Assembly: GCA_033178465.1 (NCBI GenBank)
Contig: GCA_033178465.1_4726.4
DNA: 37,920 nt
Direction: 5' to 3' (one strand)
DNA from: a phage
Part shown: piece by piece, positions 2,496 through 24,236 of the stretch
Position numbering within the stretch: position 1 is the first letter of the stretch
Layout of the letters: the number at the start of each line of letters is the position of its first letter
Notes under the pieces: model-generated
The model's database searches: none
What the model saw: the letters and a program-made list of their open reading frames with translations, nothing else
What the model was told of the DNA's origin: nothing
Translations under genes and position numbers: made by a program

Positions 2496-2512
2496 GTAAT
2501 ATAGCCGTGAAA
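2496..2512. promoter_or_regulatory. Conserved 17-mer GTAATATAGCCGTGAAA (copy 1), candidate phage promoter or operator
   Basis: Identical 17-mer recurs at 15029-15045; both copies lie in intergenic DNA upstream of a minus-strand operon start. Confidence 0.3.
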
Positions 2513-3442: not shown

Positions 3443-3469
3443 AGCCTGTCCTTCGGGGCAGGCTTTTTA
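3443..3469 (+). terminator. Rho-independent terminator
   Basis: Stem AGCCTGTCC / GGGCAGGCT with UUCG tetraloop followed by TTTTT, directly after the stop at 3436. Confidence 0.75.
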
Positions 3470-3545
3470 TGCTGTTAAATATCAGGAATAAGAATTAACA
3501 AAATAGGAAAATGGTGTGAATATAACACAAAGGAGGGAGATGATT

Positions 3546-7487: not shown

Positions 7488-10007
7488 TTAAATAATCGTG
7501 ACGTGTTCGTTATATGTTTCAGGGAGAATGATGTTCGTTTTATCAAGAACCATACACTCGGCTTTACGGAATGATGCGTGGTTGATAACATAGTGGCTGA
7601 TGAACCACACTTGGCTTACACGGTGACCGTCAACCAAACGACGAACAAAATCCATGGCATTAGATTGGTGCTGCGGATCAAATGTTGATGCGAATTCATC
7701 TAACATCAACGGATAATCCGTGAACCCTTTGTAATGCATCATCGCGATGATGAACGCGATATTGATAATTTCCTTTTGTCCCTTACTCCCATAAACAATA
7801 TCTTTTCGCGGTGTCGGATACTTCTCAGTTAAAAGCGGAAAACGATAGTTCAATCCTTGCGCATCGATAGCACATGGGAGTATCTGAAGTTGGTATTCCC
7901 AAATACTCGCAATGATACCGTTCATGTACTCAACGAACGCGTTGATGGGACCCGCAATTGTTTCGGCAATCAGGCCGTTGGATGGACTTAACTCATCCAG
8001 AACAAGTTGTGCATAACCGAGTTGTTCTTCCACCTCTTTTTGTGTCGTTTCCAGCTGAGCCAGAAGCTGTTGGTCGGTTTTAGCTTCCTGTAACTGCTGT
8101 TCGACATGGCTTATTCGGCGAACCGTATCAGACATCGCAGCACGTAACGATTTCGTGTAGAGGTGTTGCAGATACTCTAGCCACAGTTGCGTTAACGCTT
8201 TATCGCTGTTATCAGAACGTACCCGATCTTCCATAATCGCCGTAATGGTTTCCAATCTACCTTCCGTAGCTGTGATGGCTTGTGTTAACCGCTCAACGGT
8301 TGTTAACAACTCTGTCCTGTTCTTATAAAGCAATTCTCGACGTTGCTGTAACGGTTCAACATCAACCGCTTGTACCCGTTCGAGCATACCTTGAAGATGC
8401 TTCCGTTCCTGTTCGGCTTGTGTGTAACGCGCAAGTTTCTCAAACGCAAGCAACCAATCATTAATGATTCCAATACTGCGAAACCCTAATCCGTTTTTAC
8501 GGCCTTCTTCCAGCAGATTATCCCACATGGGTTTAATGGCGTAATAATCCTTCGTCCAACGTGTTAACTGACGATGCTGTTCCATCCAGAGCGTATAGCG
8601 CTGCACCTTCTCGCTAAGCTCAGCTAACGATTTCTCTTGTTCTTCAACCCAAGCACGGCCCTTCTGAATACGTTGTTCAATACCCGCTTTGCTGGTCTTT
8701 TCTGTTTCACCAACGTGAAAGCGATAATTGCATTTTGGACAGCTGGTCTGGGGTTGATGATTCAGGTGGTCAAGATGCGCTTCCAAATCGGCTAACGCAT
8801 GTTTCGCGTTACGCAAACGCATTCTTGCTGCCTCTTCCTCCTTGATGTAAGCTTCAGCATCGTAAACATGATAGGTGTTGTCGGTATCAATCCATTCTTG
8901 CAATAGTTCTGTTAACGGAGCCTGAACTTGCGTGAGCTGTTGTAAACAAACCGCAGCGTCCAGATTCATTGTTAAAAGCTCACCTGGATGATCTTGCTGA
9001 AGTTGTTCGTCCAAACAGGCAAGGCGGGCTTTAATCTGATCGATATCACCTTCGCCAGACTGTTTCAACTGGTCAAGGATATTATCGATACCCAACAGCT
9101 CGTCAACCTGACTTTCGAGTTTCGCATTCGCATTCGCGAGTTGTTCTCTTAGTTCAGCCAGATTCTGCTGTTCTTGTTGCGATGTTCCTCCCTGGTAACG
9201 AACAACCGCACGAAGAAGTTCGCGATTAAAATGATGGGCACGTTGTGCGGATTCCAGAAGCTGTCGTTGATCAACATCGCTATCGAATAACGGCAATCCC
9301 ATCATCGCTTCGAGCGCTGAGCGTTGCTGCTTTAACTCTGCTTCCAATCCCTGGTGGTCGGTTCCGGTGTATTTCGCTTCAATGCGCTGTGATGTTTCAA
9401 CCAACTTATTCAGCGTGTGCTCATTCACCGCTTTCAGTGAACGTACTTGTTGCTTAACCACCTGAAACAACTCGAGTGCGTAATCGACGTTAACCGGACA
9501 TATCTGCGTTAATCGTTCGCGACGTTTCATCGGTCCCATTTCGGTGAACTGGTAAGCCGTTTCGTAACCTAACAACAAACGAATGGTGTCATCATTAAGT
9601 TCAAAATGTTCTTCGATCAGTTTCCACTGGGCCGGTTGTGTGCCACCACCATTCAGGTTCTCGCTGTCGTTAACGTAGAACTCATGCTTAAACCCTTTTT
9701 CTAAACGACTGATAAGACGGTATTGCTTATTACGGTGTTCGCAGCGGTACTCGTAATACCCGTCTTTATCAAAATCGGCACGCTCAGGAACGGTCGGATA
9801 CAGCAAAGGCAATAGACTACTCTTACCGGAACCATTACTACCTAAAATGAGTTGTACGGGATTATCTGGCCGGATGACCAGCTCCCGAATCATCCCGGTA
9901 TCAAAACGATTGAATCCACGTAAGTGGAGATAGGTGCATCGCATGCTATGATAATCCTTCTTCGATACCTTCTGAACCACGGGTTCAGAATGCGAAGCTG
10001 AAGCCAT
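7488..10007 (-). CDS. Rad50/SbcC-family recombination ATPase (T4 gp46-like architecture)
   Basis: Walker A GSNGSGKSS near N-terminus, long coiled-coil-like Q/E/L-rich middle with a CPKC zinc-hook-like motif, signature-like GSKGQKE, Walker B LMLDEFA and H-loop ISH near C-terminus; start uncertain (ATG 10007 lacks an SD; ATG 9944 has AAGGA upstream). Confidence 0.75.
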   Translation of the reverse strand: MASASHSEPVVQKVSKKDYHSMRCTYLHLRGFNRFDTGMIRELVIRPDNPVQLILGSNGSGKSSLLPLLYPTVPERADFDKDGYYEYRCEHRNKQYRLISRLEKGFKHEFYVNDSENLNGGGTQPAQWKLIEEHFELNDDTIRLLLGYETAYQFTEMGPMKRRERLTQICPVNVDYALELFQVVKQQVRSLKAVNEHTLNKLVETSQRIEAKYTGTDHQGLEAELKQQRSALEAMMGLPLFDSDVDQRQLLESAQRAHHFNRELLRAVVRYQGGTSQQEQQNLAELREQLANANAKLESQVDELLGIDNILDQLKQSGEGDIDQIKARLACLDEQLQQDHPGELLTMNLDAAVCLQQLTQVQAPLTELLQEWIDTDNTYHVYDAEAYIKEEEAARMRLRNAKHALADLEAHLDHLNHQPQTSCPKCNYRFHVGETEKTSKAGIEQRIQKGRAWVEEQEKSLAELSEKVQRYTLWMEQHRQLTRWTKDYYAIKPMWDNLLEEGRKNGLGFRSIGIINDWLLAFEKLARYTQAEQERKHLQGMLERVQAVDVEPLQQRRELLYKNRTELLTTVERLTQAITATEGRLETITAIMEDRVRSDNSDKALTQLWLEYLQHLYTKSLRAAMSDTVRRISHVEQQLQEAKTDQQLLAQLETTQKEVEEQLGYAQLVLDELSPSNGLIAETIAGPINAFVEYMNGIIASIWEYQLQILPCAIDAQGLNYRFPLLTEKYPTPRKDIVYGSKGQKEIINIAFIIAMMHYKGFTDYPLMLDEFASTFDPQHQSNAMDFVRRLVDGHRVSQVWFISHYVINHASFRKAECMVLDKTNIILPETYNEHVTII

Positions 10008-10058
10008 ACTTCAGCGTTATTTTCTATATCGTTATTTAAATCAGTAGGAGATTACAGC

Positions 10059-11147
10059 ATGAGCGATCTGGCAACAGACAATCGCACAAAAGGGAGTCAG
10101 CTAGCTCCAGACAACAACGTAAGCGTTTTCCGTATCTATGCCTTGGGTACTGTTGCTGCCGACTTTTCCAATAAAAGTCTGGAGGAAGATCCTAACCAGA
10201 CGCTGGAGGTCTTTCTTGATGAGATGATGTCAGGCGCTGATGGGAAAGTTGAAGCGGCGGGAAGCGTTAAAGAAGTCAGTGCAACAGACGCTCAAGGGAA
10301 CAGCTATACGGCGAAAGCGGCAACAACAACCAGCGTACAGTGTTACTGGTTACCTTTCGGCAGTAACCGGATGACGGCACCTAACTTGAGGAAAGGTCAG
10401 CGTGTGGTGGTCTGGCGTACCGCTGATGAAGAACAGCTCTACTGGCAGCCCAAAGGAGGGGATAGTGAGCTGATGACCATGGAATCGGTTATCCTCACCG
10501 TCAGCGCACGTCCTAGCGCTAAGAAGGACCGTAAATCGATTTCAACGGAAGACTGCTATTACCTAATGGTTGATACCTTCCTCAAGAAAGCGGTTATCGG
10601 CACCAGCGCACAGCTTGGTGAAGTTACCCAAGTCTACATGGAACTTAATCTGGACGAGGGTTACCTACAGGTTGCGGACAGCGTCCATCAAAATCTGCTG
10701 TTACTCCATTTCGTTGAACATATGCTGCGTTATCAAAACCAGGATGACAGCATCATCGACGTGACAAAAAAGAACATCACATTCCAGTGCGAGGATACGC
10801 TCAAAGCAATCGCTAAGAACGATATCCGAATGAAAGCAAAAAATATTTATACGGAATGTGAGAACTTCGAGCGTACTAGCAAAACAGAAAGCGTTACGAG
10901 TCAGAATGTTTCTTTGAAGTGTGATCGTTACACCGCGCAAGTATCAGGACAGACCACGTTTAAATGTCCGAATACGGTATTCACTGGAGCTGTAAGCTTC
11001 ACAGGTGAAGACGGAAACACGATGACGCTGAATGGGAACTTCATACACATCGCAGGCTCTTGGCGTTCACCAACCGGAACAAACGTATACACCCACGATC
11101 ACGGTGGTGTAGATCGTGGCAGCGGTCGTACAGACCCGTTCCAATAA
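10059..11147 (+). CDS. Putative baseplate central spike protein (gpV-like), tentative
   Basis: ATG at 10059 with AGGAG 8 nt upstream; C-terminus YTHDHGGVDRGSGRTDP resembles the His-rich apex of gpV/gp45-type spikes as I recall them; not verified. Confidence 0.35.
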   Translation: MSDLATDNRTKGSQLAPDNNVSVFRIYALGTVAADFSNKSLEEDPNQTLEVFLDEMMSGADGKVEAAGSVKEVSATDAQGNSYTAKAATTTSVQCYWLPFGSNRMTAPNLRKGQRVVVWRTADEEQLYWQPKGGDSELMTMESVILTVSARPSAKKDRKSISTEDCYYLMVDTFLKKAVIGTSAQLGEVTQVYMELNLDEGYLQVADSVHQNLLLLHFVEHMLRYQNQDDSIIDVTKKNITFQCEDTLKAIAKNDIRMKAKNIYTECENFERTSKTESVTSQNVSLKCDRYTAQVSGQTTFKCPNTVFTGAVSFTGEDGNTMTLNGNFIHIAGSWRSPTGTNVYTHDHGGVDRGSGRTDPFQ

Positions 11148-14939: not shown

Positions 14940-15190
14940 TTAAAAAGATCCTCTGTTTCACGTTAATTAAACAACGTATTGATTTCTATTCGACAACAAT
15001 ACGAACATTGTCCGTATGCATCATAGAGGTAATATAGCCGTGAAAGGATTTGTGTTACAGAAAGGGTTTTGTTGTGTTTTAAGAAGGGATGGATTTAGAA
15101 GAGGTGTTTCAAGGAAGGTAAACGAGGATGGTTATTTTAATTTAAGTAAGTAAGATGTTATCTGTATTTGTTAAAAGTGTATTGTCCATG

Positions 15191-15254
15191 TTATCTTGTT
15201 TATCTTAGGTTTAATCGTTTTATCTTTGTATGTTTAAGTTGTTTTATTTATCTT
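15191..15254. repeat. Iteron-like TTATCTT heptamer repeats (4 copies)
   Basis: TTATCTT at 15191, 15200, 15220 and 15248. Confidence 0.4.
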
Positions 15255-15738
15255 GTTTGTATATTTAAATTAAATCAATAAGCGTATCTTCAAAACAATG
15301 GATAACATGTGTTTACTACCTTAATGGTAACACATGTCATCTGTGCATTACACTCCGTTATCACTTCGTTACATGCTTATATGTTGGATAACTCAAAAAA
15401 CCATTTGTGATACTCTTCTTCACGTTGTTCATCAGAGTATCTCGTCTATACTCATTGCATTCGTATACGACATAACCGTTATACGCTAACGCTACGCTTA
15501 TAGCTTGATAACTCTAAGGATAAAAACATAAACTCGCTTCGCTCGTTTAGTTTTTCTTTTTCTTAGAGTTATCCTGTTGCTCGTCTCTAAAGGACTTCGC
15601 TCCTCCCCCGTCCCCCGAAGGGGCCGAGGTCGTGGAAATTTTACTTTCCAAATACATTTACAACATCTGTAAACTTTTACTCCAGGTACTTAATCTTATC
15701 ATTAGAAATTATAAAGAGAAGAATAAACACAAACATAA

Positions 15739-15763
15739 ACCTTCCCCCGACCCAACAGGGAAG
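15739..15763 (-). terminator. Intrinsic terminator candidate after gene 15783-16676
   Basis: Stem CCTTCCC / GGGAAGG with 11-nt loop; on the minus strand it is followed by a T-rich tract (complement of 15721-15738). Confidence 0.45.
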
Positions 15764-15782
15764 GAGGAAGGGAGAGATTAAA

Positions 15783-16676
15783 TTATTCGGAAACGTTGTA
15801 ACCGAATACGGCTTTACCGTAGGTGTGGGTACCGTCAGCTAACGACACCACTAGCACATGGTTGTATGTGGCGTTAACACCCTTGTCGGTAGACTCGGTG
15901 GTAGCACCGTTATAGACAAAGGTAGCTGTTTGCAGATTGGCTTTCAGCTCGGTGATGATCTCCTCACTTACACCCGTCTGCTCTTTGATCAGCGTAGTCA
16001 GGTTACCTGCCAGGGTATCATCGATCTTGGTTTCATTACTGGTAATCGCCTGTAAGCCTACAGTGTAGGTGCTGAAGTCTAACGGATAGGTTAACAGACG
16101 TGCTGACGTTTTGGTACCATCGCCTTCATCAACGTAGGTTAAGTTACCCAGGTTGGTAACCTTGATGATGTTAGCCAGATCCAGCGTGGTGTTATAAACT
16201 TTAACTTGAACAGAACCATACCACGCCAACGAATCTTCTTTGGCTTCCAGGGTGATCGTCTGGATACCATGATCGTCGAAGGTAACAGGATTAGCTAACG
16301 TATCGGCTTTGATGTCTTTCGCTTTATCCAGGAACTTCTCACCGGAAGGCGTGATCATACCGTAGCGTTGAGCTACAAGGTCAACCACATCACCGATGGT
16401 GGTGTTCGCTTCAACGTTAACACGTACAGCGATCTTCTGGAACCACTTAGCCAGATCCAGACGATGGTAGGTAACATCGCGTTCATTGAAGTAAGGGGTA
16501 CCTTCACCAGGGCTAAGCGTTAAAGTTGCTTCTGGAGCAGAAGCGCTTTTGGATTTAAGAACGTATTTAAGATCACTGTATTGGAAGCTGGCACCAGTGT
16601 CGGCGTTGAGCTGGTTGATCTCATCAACGATAAGTTGCCAAGGTGTTTTTAAAGTAAGTGAAACTTGAGTTGCCAT
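15783..16676 (-). CDS. Paralog-family protein (297 aa), probable virion structural protein
   Basis: ATG 16676 with GAGGT upstream; shares the motifs TYHRLDL, LVAQRYGM and SLAWYGSVQV with the tandem paralogs at 28896-32515 and with the 180-aa protein; moderately optimised codon usage. Confidence 0.65.
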   Translation of the reverse strand: MATQVSLTLKTPWQLIVDEINQLNADTGASFQYSDLKYVLKSKSASAPEATLTLSPGEGTPYFNERDVTYHRLDLAKWFQKIAVRVNVEANTTIGDVVDLVAQRYGMITPSGEKFLDKAKDIKADTLANPVTFDDHGIQTITLEAKEDSLAWYGSVQVKVYNTTLDLANIIKVTNLGNLTYVDEGDGTKTSARLLTYPLDFSTYTVGLQAITSNETKIDDTLAGNLTTLIKEQTGVSEEIITELKANLQTATFVYNGATTESTDKGVNATYNHVLVVSLADGTHTYGKAVFGYNVSE

Positions 16677-19420: not shown

Positions 19421-19444
19421 AAGAGGGAGTGGCAGCTCCCTCTT
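19421..19444 (+). terminator. Terminator candidate after the HNH gene
   Basis: Stem AAGAGGGAG / CTCCCTCTT (9 bp) with 6-nt loop, followed by a partly T-rich run. Confidence 0.4.
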
Positions 19445-19488
19445 TATGCCGTGTTGTTAAATACTGGATTTAGAGGAACAGGAAGGGT

Positions 19489-21632: not shown

Positions 21633-24236
21633 TTATAACGTGACTGTACCTAATTTGGTTGTCTTATTGAGATTAATGACAGAGATCTGGGTATCGCTGG
21701 TCGTGATGGTGCCAATATTAACACGTTGTCCTTTATCATCTTCTTGCTTGTAGATGGTTAACTCCAGTTCTAACTGGTCGCCATTAGGAACAACGGAAAC
21801 GTACCATGTTTTATTACCCGGGGAGCTATTATAGTCTTTTAGGTTATAATGGCCTTTAGGTAAGGTCATGACCTTACCGGCAAACAAGCAAGTGATGTCT
21901 TCGTTGATGTAGATATCGTAGCCGGAAGCAGCAACGACCGTAGAAACCATGTAACGGTTTTTAACGGCGAGAGCTTTATATTCCGCGACGGAATTGCCCA
22001 CGACATTAAAGACTTGACCGCCATTTCCCATCACCGTAGAGACTGCGGTATCAACATAACCGATTCCCCACACCGGATGCACGTTCCAACGATAGCCGTT
22101 TGTCTGTAGGTAAGCATACATCCCTTCAAATGCGATGGTTGTCCAGTTTCCATCGTTCTGCCGTCCAGCTCGGAACTGATAGGTGTTTTGATTTCCTGCA
22201 GACTGACGGGAACACGGAACGTGCCCAGCAACAAGCCATCCATCACTCACCTTCTTGTACGCGAGTACGCCCCACGCAACATCTTGAGTTCCGATATTTG
22301 ATGTATCGCCGTCTTCGACATAACCCAGCAGTTTGGTTACGCCTGTCACGGTGATAGCGCCTTTACGTGCGGATACGGTAACCTCCGCGGCGATTCGTCC
22401 ATGTACGCGTGTTTCGGTATTACAACCAACAACAAACAGAATACAGGGTGCGTTCGTACCGTCTGGAGGTACCGCTAACGCATGCCGCCACCGACTTACC
22501 CCTGATAACTTAGATCCTGTATATGCGTTCCACACAAGCTGACCACCTGCTTGCAGATTCGCTGCGGTTATGCTGATAGCTTCTCCGGAAGGCGTAAGTT
22601 TGGTTGCGTCGTAACCTATTTTGTTTGTTAGGATCACATCGGTTAAATAAGACCCGCTAACTACCGTATTATCGTCGCTTAAATGCACGGTTAGGAAAGG
22701 TAACGACATTTGACCTGTTCTAACCACCACGTTGTTGGAAGGCGGGAAACCGTAAACATCAATACCCTCGCCTTGATAATGGTAGTTGAGGTCCCAGTCA
22801 TAGGTCACTAGACGAGCCTCAAAATTACCCTGTCCGCCACCCGTACGTGAGTTAACGAAAACCTTGTTTTTAGAAAAGAAACCCAGGTAACCATGGGACG
22901 CCAGTGCGCCTACGACACGATCACCGACGTTTTTCCAGTATGAATCGTACTGTATTCCACCAGTAGGACCGAGTTTGGCGAGTTCGTCGAACACGTTTCC
23001 AGAGAAACCGTTGATAGTGTACGATCGCGCTTGGGGGGCGGATAAGTTGTCGTTTTGGATAATGGCTACCTGACCACGTTCGTTGATTTCGATATTCCCG
23101 GTACCGTTACCCGAACCCCATTGCCAGAAACCGTCGTTATATCCGCTTGTCCCTTCCGTTGTGTTGGAAGGTCCTATCCAATCAATACCACTGCTGGTCG
23201 ATGTGTAGGTCGATTGTCCAGCGCCAGGGTTCATGCTGTAACTGTTGTTGGTGGTTTCAAAATCCAAATAGAACTGATGCAGCCCGTTTTTAGATCGGTT
23301 GTTACGGTTGTTCGTCCACCACGCCGAAGCAATCAGAATACGTGCTTTAGTACCTTTGGTTGCTGCGAACATACGAATCTGAGCACGCCAGACGGTTTGA
23401 CCGATCCCGTCAGAAGGGAAATCGTTCGTAGTTATACGGTTGCAGACAATCATCTCGGCACTGTTGCTTATCGCCGTTCCTTCTATCGTTCTACCGCTAA
23501 TATTCGTAAGCTGTGTAGCTGCTACGCTGCCACCGCTGGGACCGATGGAAGATTTCGTTACGGTATAAACATTTAAGTAGAGTTTATAACTGTTAGTGCC
23601 AGCAATAGCGATGTAGATTTTACCGTTAATTTCCCAACAGCAGACATTCGGTGACGTATCAACAAAGTTGGCAAGACTACCATCAAGATACATGGCGACA
23701 TGTTTGGATGCGTCAAACGTTCCGTCTGTCAATGCGATAAACATTTTAGGGCTGCTACCGTCTTCAAAAGCAGCTTGACCTAACATGATACCGTTCTGGT
23801 GACAGTATATCACCGTAGGAATACGATCGAGCGTTGCGGGCTCATAGCGACGGCTGGTTGGAATAACTTCAGTGATCTGTCCGTTTTGATTTGTTTTACA
23901 GATAACGTAGTAAACCCCTTTCTTTACGCTGTTCGTTGCCGAACGCAGTAACACGATAGTGCCGTCGGATTCACGGCATACGCCGTAACGACGGTATTTG
24001 TCGTTTAGACAGATAGCACCATCAGCGGAGCCTTCAATTGCCAGAGGAAAATAACTTTGGTCCCCAACCTGTTCGATATCGGTTACGCCAATATCGATAT
24101 ATTTTTCCATCTCAGCGTTGAACTCAGCGGTACTGTAGGCCCCAAGATCGCTCGCTTTCAGTCCCGTTGGGTTGTCGCGACTGGCGATACGCGTATTAAC
24201 GCTACTCACCAGTTCGCTGAACTTTTTCATTGCCAT
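21633..24236 (-). CDS. Large tail fibre or tailspike-like protein (867 aa), putative receptor-binding protein
   Basis: Lies between the fibre genes; N-terminal KKFSELVSSVNTRIASRDNPTGLKASD resembles the N-termini of the two small downstream genes; Gly/Ser/Thr/Asn-rich beta-type composition; ATG 24236 with GAGGTG upstream. Confidence 0.55.
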   Translation of the reverse strand: MAMKKFSELVSSVNTRIASRDNPTGLKASDLGAYSTAEFNAEMEKYIDIGVTDIEQVGDQSYFPLAIEGSADGAICLNDKYRRYGVCRESDGTIVLLRSATNSVKKGVYYVICKTNQNGQITEVIPTSRRYEPATLDRIPTVIYCHQNGIMLGQAAFEDGSSPKMFIALTDGTFDASKHVAMYLDGSLANFVDTSPNVCCWEINGKIYIAIAGTNSYKLYLNVYTVTKSSIGPSGGSVAATQLTNISGRTIEGTAISNSAEMIVCNRITTNDFPSDGIGQTVWRAQIRMFAATKGTKARILIASAWWTNNRNNRSKNGLHQFYLDFETTNNSYSMNPGAGQSTYTSTSSGIDWIGPSNTTEGTSGYNDGFWQWGSGNGTGNIEINERGQVAIIQNDNLSAPQARSYTINGFSGNVFDELAKLGPTGGIQYDSYWKNVGDRVVGALASHGYLGFFSKNKVFVNSRTGGGQGNFEARLVTYDWDLNYHYQGEGIDVYGFPPSNNVVVRTGQMSLPFLTVHLSDDNTVVSGSYLTDVILTNKIGYDATKLTPSGEAISITAANLQAGGQLVWNAYTGSKLSGVSRWRHALAVPPDGTNAPCILFVVGCNTETRVHGRIAAEVTVSARKGAITVTGVTKLLGYVEDGDTSNIGTQDVAWGVLAYKKVSDGWLVAGHVPCSRQSAGNQNTYQFRAGRQNDGNWTTIAFEGMYAYLQTNGYRWNVHPVWGIGYVDTAVSTVMGNGGQVFNVVGNSVAEYKALAVKNRYMVSTVVAASGYDIYINEDITCLFAGKVMTLPKGHYNLKDYNSSPGNKTWYVSVVPNGDQLELELTIYKQEDDKGQRVNIGTITTSDTQISVINLNKTTKLGTVTL

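Follow-up and report, generated by a model that had tools for sequence, protein, structure and literature searches.

Two tandem hairpins upstream of the SbcC-like gene of a Goslar-like jumbo phage: a probable copy of a dispersed palindromic repeat in an mRNA leader

Which of two in-frame ATG codons opens the SbcC/Rad50-like gene of a Goslar-like phage, and what are the two perfect hairpins that lie around the first of them? The question arises from a 37,920-nt stretch of phage DNA (GCA_033178465.1, contig GCA_033178465.1_4726.4; hereafter the window). An earlier note on it offered two proposals: a gene start at 9944, with the hairpins between divergent genes as leader or operator structures, or translation from an ATG at 10007 that is regulated by structure. 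Positions 9500-10600 of the window match Escherichia phage vB_EcoM_Goslar (MK327938 / NC_048170, 237 kb) at 98.4%, and near 10 kb a window coordinate equals the Goslar coordinate minus 11. Goslar belongs to Chimalliviridae, the nucleus-forming jumbo phages. The hairpin site is the 114-nt spacer (9945-10058) that separates the SbcC-like gene from the divergent gene gp13. We find that the SbcC-like protein starts at 9944, the second in-frame ATG. We further suggest, with a probability of about 0.6, that the hairpins and the bases joining them are a copy of a small repeat family, similar to repetitive extragenic palindromes (REPs), which lies in the SbcC leader and modestly affects mRNA stability or translation.

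The hairpins and the start codon

Both hairpins are as the earlier note described them. Read on the plus strand, H1 is GCTGAAG-CCATA-CTTCAGC (9997-10015) and H2 is TTCTGAACC-ACG-GGTTCAGAA (9970-9990); each stem is 100% complementary, and 6 nt separate the two. On the minus strand, ATG 10007-10005 does lie inside the H1 loop, which reads UAUGG. Its upstream bases (GCTGAAGT) hold no Shine-Dalgarno (SD) sequence, and the in-frame ATG 9944 has the SD AAGGA (9959-9955) 10 nt upstream. What has to be corrected is the placement of the pair, which is not at the 5' end of the gene but upstream of it.

The 114-nt spacer was shuffled 20,000 times with its dinucleotides preserved; two or more perfect hairpins including one of at least 9 bp occurred with a frequency of 0.0002, and a hairpin of at least 9 bp alone with a frequency of 0.003. 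The whole window contains 26 perfect hairpins with stems of at least 7 bp (13.2 +/- 3.6 expected) and seven with stems of at least 9 bp (0.85 expected). In Goslar, which was assembled whole with 247 annotated coding sequences and is 7% non-coding, the density of such hairpins is 2.98/kb in non-coding versus 0.55/kb in coding DNA for stems of at least 7 bp, and 1.07/kb versus 0.068/kb for stems of at least 9 bp, a 5- to 16-fold excess. Given this general enrichment of perfect hairpins in non-coding DNA, the H1-H2 pair is typical of Goslar intergenic style, unusual as it is against random sequence. An Rfam 15 covariance scan of 9850-10150 with E up to 10 returned just two chance-level matches (E = 6.4 and 6.7).

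Five lines of evidence put the start of the SbcC-like protein (818 aa) at 9944. Firstly, the Goslar annotation places it at the equivalent position. Secondly, a search of 5.8 billion proteins with the 839-aa open reading frame (ORF) from 10007 gave 23 homologues with coverage of at most 97%, and the first 21 residues are covered by 0/23. The N-termini of nearly all of them align at M-9944 or within a few residues of it; the exceptions are four with leads 6-14 residues longer and one truncated sequence, none of which resembles the extension in the window. Walker A (GSNGSGKSS) stands ~35 residues from the N-terminus in SbcC homologues. Thirdly, the tblastn matches of the 818-aa form to SbcC genes of many chimalliviruses start at its residue 1, and this is the annotated start in six annotated chimalliviruses (LucasX, RTH11, 201phi2-1, Noxifer, pEa_SNUABM_54 and Eowyn). 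Fourthly, two intermediate relatives start with MRCTY (P0002 in L176, 51% identity) and MKCTY (P0003 in L177, 49%). Their divergent spacers, 67 nt in L176 and 58 nt in L177, barely exceed the 63-nt extension, and L176 has an in-frame TAA seven codons upstream of its SbcC start. Finally, a deletion variant described below lacks ATG 10007 and encodes an identical SbcC.

Because these five lines indicate 9944, translation from 10007 is very unlikely, and the 63-nt "extension" is the repeat element read in frame. A translational operator or riboregulator acting on ATG 10007 was rejected as well: the codon has no SD, the extension is absent from all homologues, and a natural variant has the ATG deleted. 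For annotation this means that the second in-frame ATG opens the Goslar-type SbcC-like gene; the 839-aa form appears in at least one public record.

A dispersed palindromic repeat family

When the window is aligned with L176 and L177, a gap of 36-46 columns falls exactly over H1-H2. All three sequences keep the flank GTAATCTCCTAC, which is the gp13 SD on the other strand, and the core TAAC-(C/G)-(A)TATAGA; AAGGA...CATAGCATG is kept in L176 only. The extra sequence of the window, a 53-nt block, sits exactly between the TATAGA core and the SbcC SD, and the two relatives retain the gene order with the block missing. Neither the H1-H2 pair nor any conserved two-hairpin structure was found in the homologous spacers of nine distant chimalliviruses (58-98 nt), where perfect hairpins occur only in the long spacers of pEa_SNUABM_54 and Eowyn and are unrelated. 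Since L176, L177 and the nine distant spacers lack the pair, parsimony favours an insertion in the Goslar lineage. Conservation in relatives, which the earlier note had raised as a check, holds near and fails further out: of 16 other Goslar-like genomes, 15 have identical stems in both hairpins (16/17 with the window), and the block is absent from the relatives at 49-51% identity.

The pattern CATTCT-N(5-25)-AGAA(A/G)GT has five copies in Goslar, 5/5 of them non-coding, and a sixth, looser copy brings the H2-type hairpins to six; the H1-H2 tandems number two. All are in non-coding DNA (Table 1). Copies c and d have the opposite orientation to copies a, b, e and f. Common to the family are the flanks GC(A/T)TCGCATTCT ... 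AGAAGGTA(A/T)CG; the upper stems vary yet stay complementary. In an alignment of seven paralogous sequences 97.3% of the cells are paired and three pairs have changed on both sides. None of 500 shuffles reached the covariation score of the family, and slid controls drop to 25-52% paired. The family is therefore REP-like in several respects: its related copies are confined to non-coding DNA, they occur in both orientations, and compensatory changes maintain the palindrome.

The second H1-H2 tandem, at Goslar 211862-211907 (L019 ~23662-23707), reads GCTGAAG-aata-CTTCAGC-gccg-CATTCTCGA-tatga-TCGAGAAAGT. Alignment to Rfam RF00028 (67.7 bits) puts it within loop P8 of a group I intron, which interrupts a large minus-strand gene next to the genes for virion RNA polymerase (RNAP) subunits. 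In L021 (IMGVR_UViG_3300011560_000001), a relative 98% identical to Goslar, copy b shares 21 nt (GCTTCAGCTTCGCATTCTGAA) with the window copy, including the 3' arm of H1; the copies are thus related by descent and not by convergence. No family members were found in 19 kb of L176 and L177 sequence. Pattern scans of IMG/VR (CGCATTCT-N-AGAAGGTA and the H1-H2 tandem) gave only Goslar-like genomes and chance-level matches; with ~30 chance matches expected for the tandem pattern by our own estimate, these scans are uninformative on wider distribution.

The family also bears on the proposed "leader or operator" role. A double-stranded DNA operator would be a site for a dimeric repressor. Although TTCT/AGAA is kept, the spacing between the arms ranges from 11 to 26 nt, and the inner and upper-stem sequence differs among members while staying self-complementary. 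Because arm spacing and upper-stem sequence vary though the stem base is kept, such an operator is unlikely. The leader part of the proposal, with a start at 9944, is supported.

Variation among Goslar-like genomes gives further insight into the palindromes. The H2 loop (window 9979-9981; Goslar 9990-9992) is exactly inverted, being ACG in Goslar and CGT in the window and 14 others (minus strand), and this is the sole difference in a 201-nt alignment of window and Goslar. Such a flip is the signature of a hairpin-mediated small inversion. At copy b (Goslar 160889-160914, just past the chmC/gp176 stop) a 13-nt inversion distinguishes Goslar from L021 1175-1203 (GAGTCTTCGATTC vs GAATCGAAGACTC). 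Both flips show that these palindromes act as structures at the DNA level and that neither the sequence nor the orientation of the loop is critical. Two Goslar-like genomes have a C-to-A change in the spacer. The deletion variant, L181 (Logan SRR7039243 contig, 1434-1500), lacks 47 nt equivalent to window 9960-10006. It has thereby lost ATG 10007 and H2 as well as the spacer and the 3' arm of H1, and its SbcC protein is identical. The deletion is bounded by GAAG direct repeats, and palindrome-stimulated slippage would account for it.

A leader element and its alternatives

We infer that the block acts at the RNA level. It lies between the promoter-like core and the SbcC SD and, as a copy of the Goslar-type family, combines the conserved base CGCATTCT...AGAAGGTA with an upper stem that varies and is self-complementary. 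The block is most likely transcribed within the 5' leader of the SbcC-RuvC-thymidylate kinase mRNA. Candidate start sites for this transcript are TATAG at 10024, G10005 of the loop TATG, and ~9996 (24 nt past AAAATAAC); H2 would be in the leader under all three, H1 only with the start at TATAG 10024. Folding energies are ~-9.6 kcal/mol for H1 and ~-11.7 kcal/mol for extended H2. The leader fold has z = -2.99, and H1 and H2 appear in both the minimum free energy (MFE) and the centroid structures, on both strands.

Two effects are conceivable. Firstly, stable 5'-proximal stem-loops are a classical brake on 5'-end-dependent mRNA decay, and those of the leader could protect the mRNA 5' end. Secondly, UCGCAU (9995-9990, that is five spacer bases and the first base of H2) is complementary to AUGCGA at the true start, and an inverted repeat (I2) joins 9936-9947 with 9987-9998 at 83% complementarity. 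The AUG shows partial pairing: its P(unpaired) is 0.15-0.7, varying with the assumed start site. Pairing of the spacer with the start codon could mildly dampen translation. Because one natural variant is without the block, its effect, if any, is probably modest.

Several observations weigh against a leader element. The deletion variant suggests that the block is not essential, unless the L181 contig is an assembly artefact. The helix that closes the AUG is present in the MFE fold yet missing from the centroid, and the complementarity between spacer and start codon may be chance, since GC[AT]TCGCAT is ~4-fold over-represented genome-wide (15 copies vs 3.7 expected). The covariation is based on just seven sequences of paralogous copies. 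Family members stand in both orientations relative to flanking genes; this mix and the loop flips fit a DNA-level or function-free palindrome equally well. H1 may act as RNA or as promoter DNA, and in the literature searched we found no published transcript map for Goslar.

The best of the alternatives, though unlikely in our estimation, is a selfish or neutral palindrome similar to REPs or miniature inverted-repeat transposable elements. Template switching or recombination would have carried it into non-coding sites that tolerate it (leaders, 3' untranslated regions (UTRs), an intron loop), and it would have no regulatory role; in anatomy this overlaps with the leader element. The lineage-specific insertion, the presence/absence polymorphism alongside an identical SbcC protein, the copies in both orientations, the one in a peripheral intron loop and the internal inversions between 98%-identical genomes all favour it. 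They have to be set against stems that are invariant in 15 of the 16 other Goslar-like genomes while flanking codons have single-nucleotide polymorphisms. Compensatory changes that keep all paralogues folded also speak against it, though intrastrand correction can self-maintain palindromes. No transposase-like partner was identified, and no systematic search for one was made.

That H1 acts on the plus strand, as an intrinsic terminator or insulator or as the upstream hairpin of a hairpin-plus-TATG promoter cassette for gp13, we consider distinctly improbable. On this strand it passes a simple terminator scan (7-bp stem, 4 GC pairs, tail GTTATTTTCT with 7 T in 10) and is the first listed of five terminator-like sites in a 6-kb scan; no T-run follows H1 on the minus strand or H2 on either. 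Its annotation in Goslar as a putative terminator (-10.4) ranks it among the three weakest, at -10.0 to -10.4 versus -13.6 to -18.8 for the other 17, and terminator-like sites are not enriched regionally (5 vs 6.0 +/- 3.3 in shuffles). Both phiKZ and 201phi2-1 have terminators that lie in 5' UTRs (PMC10914365, PMC11512511), and Goslar gp160 has one upstream. Here, however, the reading fails the test of context because nothing upstream needs terminating: all that lies upstream on this strand is SbcC, in antisense, and the nearest plus-strand genes end ~5.8 kb away.

The cassette version draws on ~20 Goslar sites with a hairpin and TTTATGC(C/T)G 16-130 nt before the next gene, and H1 is indeed followed by TCTATATCG and then by 29 nt to the gp13 ATG. 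In a cassette the hairpin ends 1-5 nt before TATG, C(C/T)G comes next, and the gene downstream runs in the same direction. H1 deviates from this consensus: the minus-strand TATG is inside the loop, and on the plus strand the spacing between hairpin and motif is 9 nt and the motif is TATATCG, with TATAT instead of TATG. Moreover, the gp13 promoter core is independent of H1, since L176 and L177 have no hairpin and yet retain TCTATA(G/T)G at an unchanged distance from gp13. The second tandem copy is inside intron RNA, on the minus strand, which is also at odds with a plus-strand role.

We give little credence to an element acting as DNA, whether as extruded hairpins or cruciforms bound by a phage protein or with the loop TATG offered single-stranded to the non-virion RNA polymerase (nvRNAP). 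Three of the nine family hairpins carry a sense-strand TATG in or at their loop: H1 here, copy c, which stands 38 nt upstream of gp227, and the intron copy e. TATG is the fifth commonest 4-mer in non-coding hairpin loops (9/742); these loop counts are post hoc, and H2 is without TATG. The phiKZ nvRNAP binds TATG on the opened non-template strand (PMC12809450), and the loop flips, in which palindromes act as DNA structures, and the independence of orientation are consistent with such an element. On the other hand, TATG is only ~2-fold enriched in non-coding DNA, much as TATA is, most Goslar TATG sites are just past a hairpin and not within its loop, and the model late promoter p119L of phiKZ, when checked, had no hairpin around its TATG. 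Just as improbably, H1/H2 palindromes would be structure-dependent promoters that show the loop TATG to nvRNAP, with G10005 as the start of the SbcC operon. If true, loop presentation would help explain promoter specificity of so short a motif in phiKZ-like phages.

If translation began at ATG 10007 under the control of structure, SbcC would have 839 aa, 21 of them as an N-terminal extension. This reading can draw on an ORF that is open from 10007, on a Goslar loop inversion that preserves frame and on the one NCBI record (P0031) that annotates this product, but we dismiss it on the evidence given above and because the extension is wholly encoded by the repeat element.

Locus, transcription signals and known systems

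Table 1. Features of the SbcC/gp13 spacer and copies of the repeat family (window coordinates unless Goslar is named)
Feature	Position	Strand	Remarks
SbcC/Rad50-like ATPase gene (Goslar gp012)	7488..9944	-	SMC_N match
Start codon of the SbcC-like gene (818-aa protein)	9942..9944	-	
SD AAGGA serving ATG 9944	9955..9959	-	AAGGA present in L176 too
Whole H1-spacer-H2 block, 53 nt	9963..10015	-	GCTGAAGTATGGCTTCAGC-TTCGCA-TTCTGAACCCGTGGTTCAGAA-GGTATCG
Extended H2 (GCAUUCUGAACC...GGUUCAGAAGGU)	9967..9993	-	Bears the conserved family base CGCATTCT...AGAAGGTA
H2 core hairpin	9970..9990	-	TTCTGAACC-cgt-GGTTCAGAA; 9 bp stem, 3-nt loop; in MFE and centroid folds
Spacer joining H1 and H2	9991..9996	-	UUCGCA
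H1 hairpin	9997..10015	-	GCTGAAG-tatgg-CTTCAGC; 7 bp stem, 5-nt loop
TATG in H1 loop	10005..10008	-	Its ATG (10007-10005) opens the 839-codon ORF; matches the 4-nt phiKZ late-promoter motif
Conserved divergent-control core (TAAC-n-TATAGA)	10016..10037	.	AAATAAC-GATATAGA-AAATAAC; common to L176, L177
SD (GTAGGAGATTAC) and ATG of gp13, baseplate central spike gene	10044..10061	+	Start codon at 10059
Family copies	Goslar 9978, 160889, 211862	-	CATTCT-N(5-25)-AGAA(A/G)GT pattern
Family copies	Goslar 207152, 226613	+	CATTCT-N(5-25)-AGAA(A/G)GT pattern
Sixth, looser H2-type copy	Goslar 60949		

The TAAC-n-TATAGA core is a probable promoter core for both divergent genes. TATAGA-like motifs stand upstream of SbcC also in 201phi2-1, PhiPA3 and pEa_SNUABM_54, and a TATAG(A)- or TATG-like motif is present 20-60 nt upstream of SbcC in most homologous spacers (L007-L015, L176, L177). 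Within the core, AAAATAAC resembles AAanTTACc, the middle-promoter motif of phiKZ with its centre near -24 (PMC4666361); a similar GATATAGAAA is found upstream of gp068, which encodes DNA polymerase. TATAG shows no enrichment that would make it a sense-strand promoter motif in general (15 sense vs 23 antisense). TATG, the 4-nt late-promoter motif of phiKZ (PMC7598289, PMC4666361), has its G at +1 in promoters of the phiKZ type (PMC4666361, PMC12809450). Its orientation in co-directional spacers shows a modest bias (64 sense vs 41 antisense). In the spacer under study it occurs at 10008-10005 (-) and 9947-9950 (+), and the 4-mer is uninformative by itself.

Two further signals were noticed elsewhere in the genome, and both are absent in canonical form from this spacer. 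The motif TTTCACGGCTATATTAC(C/T)T has 13 Goslar spacer sites on the minus strand, which carries most genes (for example window 2496-2504 and 15029-15037), and is usually followed by small 5' hairpins, often with GTGA loops; it is a probable early promoter of the virion RNAP in Goslar-type phages (compare the review PMC7598289). Reading GTAATATAG as an early promoter on the plus strand was abandoned, the motif being actually TTTCACGGCTATATTAC on the minus strand. In the cassettes mentioned above, (G)TTTATGC(C/T)G comes after a GC-rich hairpin, and the next gene in the same direction lies downstream (~20 intergenic sites, such as window 3455-3480 and 19421-19460, and one in L176 at 2864-2897). 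They are probably a terminator plus a phiKZ-type TATG promoter. Together, the TAAC-n-TATAGA core and the hairpin plus TTTATGCCG cassettes provide candidate promoter and terminator signals for Goslar. A strong terminator-type hairpin with a T-run (Goslar 142889-142917) is located in a divergent spacer 35 nt upstream of the helicase gene gp160 and resembles the 5'-UTR conditional terminators of phiKZ and 201phi2-1.

As a dispersed intergenic palindromic repeat with 5'-leader hairpins, the feature is of a known kind and fairly ordinary, and it leaves current understanding of the field unchanged. Enterobacterial REPs and the bacterial interspersed mosaic elements built of them are likewise short imperfect palindromes in transcribed non-coding DNA, with several copies in both orientations, single or in tandem, and the Goslar family shares with them a conserved stem base and a variable top. 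REPs stabilise adjacent mRNA. Unlike them, the Goslar family resides in a phage genome, has ~6 copies, one of them in a group I intron loop, and is unrelated in sequence; no RAYT-type transposase was identified, no search for one having been made in the Goslar genome. T4-type phages reportedly carry mobile regulatory cassettes called PeSL (promoter-early stem-loop), which are similarly dispersed intergenic stem-loop modules of large lytic phages linked to genome plasticity. The H1-H2 block differs from PeSL in that it is without the early-promoter consensus TTTCACGGCTATATTAC; the early promoters of Goslar precede other 5' hairpins.

Structures in 5' UTRs and short RNAs derived from leaders are common in phiKZ-like phages (PMC10914365, PMC11512511). 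Their stem-loops and conditional terminators come from the same phage family and place a structured element between promoter and start codon, as in our case, but they are defined by mapped 5'/3' ends and mostly have U-tracts, whereas H1 and H2 have none on the SbcC strand. Small inversions of hairpin loops occur in intergenic spacers of chloroplasts, where a loop or upper stem is flipped between near-identical genomes and the flanking inverted repeat is kept. The 3-nt flip in H2 and the 13-nt flip in copy b are their Goslar counterparts, found in a phage genome and in a process known here from variation between isolates alone.

A nucleus-forming jumbo phage harbors a small REP-like family, present both in an mRNA leader and in a group I intron loop. 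The family is polymorphic among circulating strains and flips its loops, and can thus serve as a tractable natural system for palindrome dynamics. For studies of palindromes it is also notable that one copy adjoins the gene for a palindrome-cutting nuclease of the SbcC type.

The SbcC-like gene heads a minus-strand run that continues with a gp011 homologue, a RuvC-like resolvase, a gp009 homologue and thymidylate kinase. On the other side, gp13 is the trimeric baseplate central spike according to cryo-electron microscopy (preprint 10.64898/2026.04.21.720040). The divergent pairing of spike and SbcC is kept across Chimalliviridae, down to ~24% protein identity, and is present in phiKZ (gp164/gp165), 201phi2-1 (gp249/gp250), PhiPA3, Noxifer, RisingSun and Xanthomonas phages.

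Near-identical copies of the SbcC-like protein form a cluster of 483 members. Their contigs measure 235-244 kb and belong to draft assemblies that bear the labels E. coli O157, Shigella sonnei, Shigella flexneri or one of several Salmonella serovars. Because the copies sit in those assemblies, Goslar-like phages seem to be widely carried by, or co-sequenced with, clinical isolates of Enterobacteriaceae; a search of complete E. coli RefSeq genomes and PLSDB plasmids gave zero matches. Further along the window, at ~14,960-15,815 (Goslar 14972-15825), 854 nt without an annotated gene contain an early-promoter-like motif, several hairpins and TATG sites, and this stretch may encode small RNAs or unannotated small genes.

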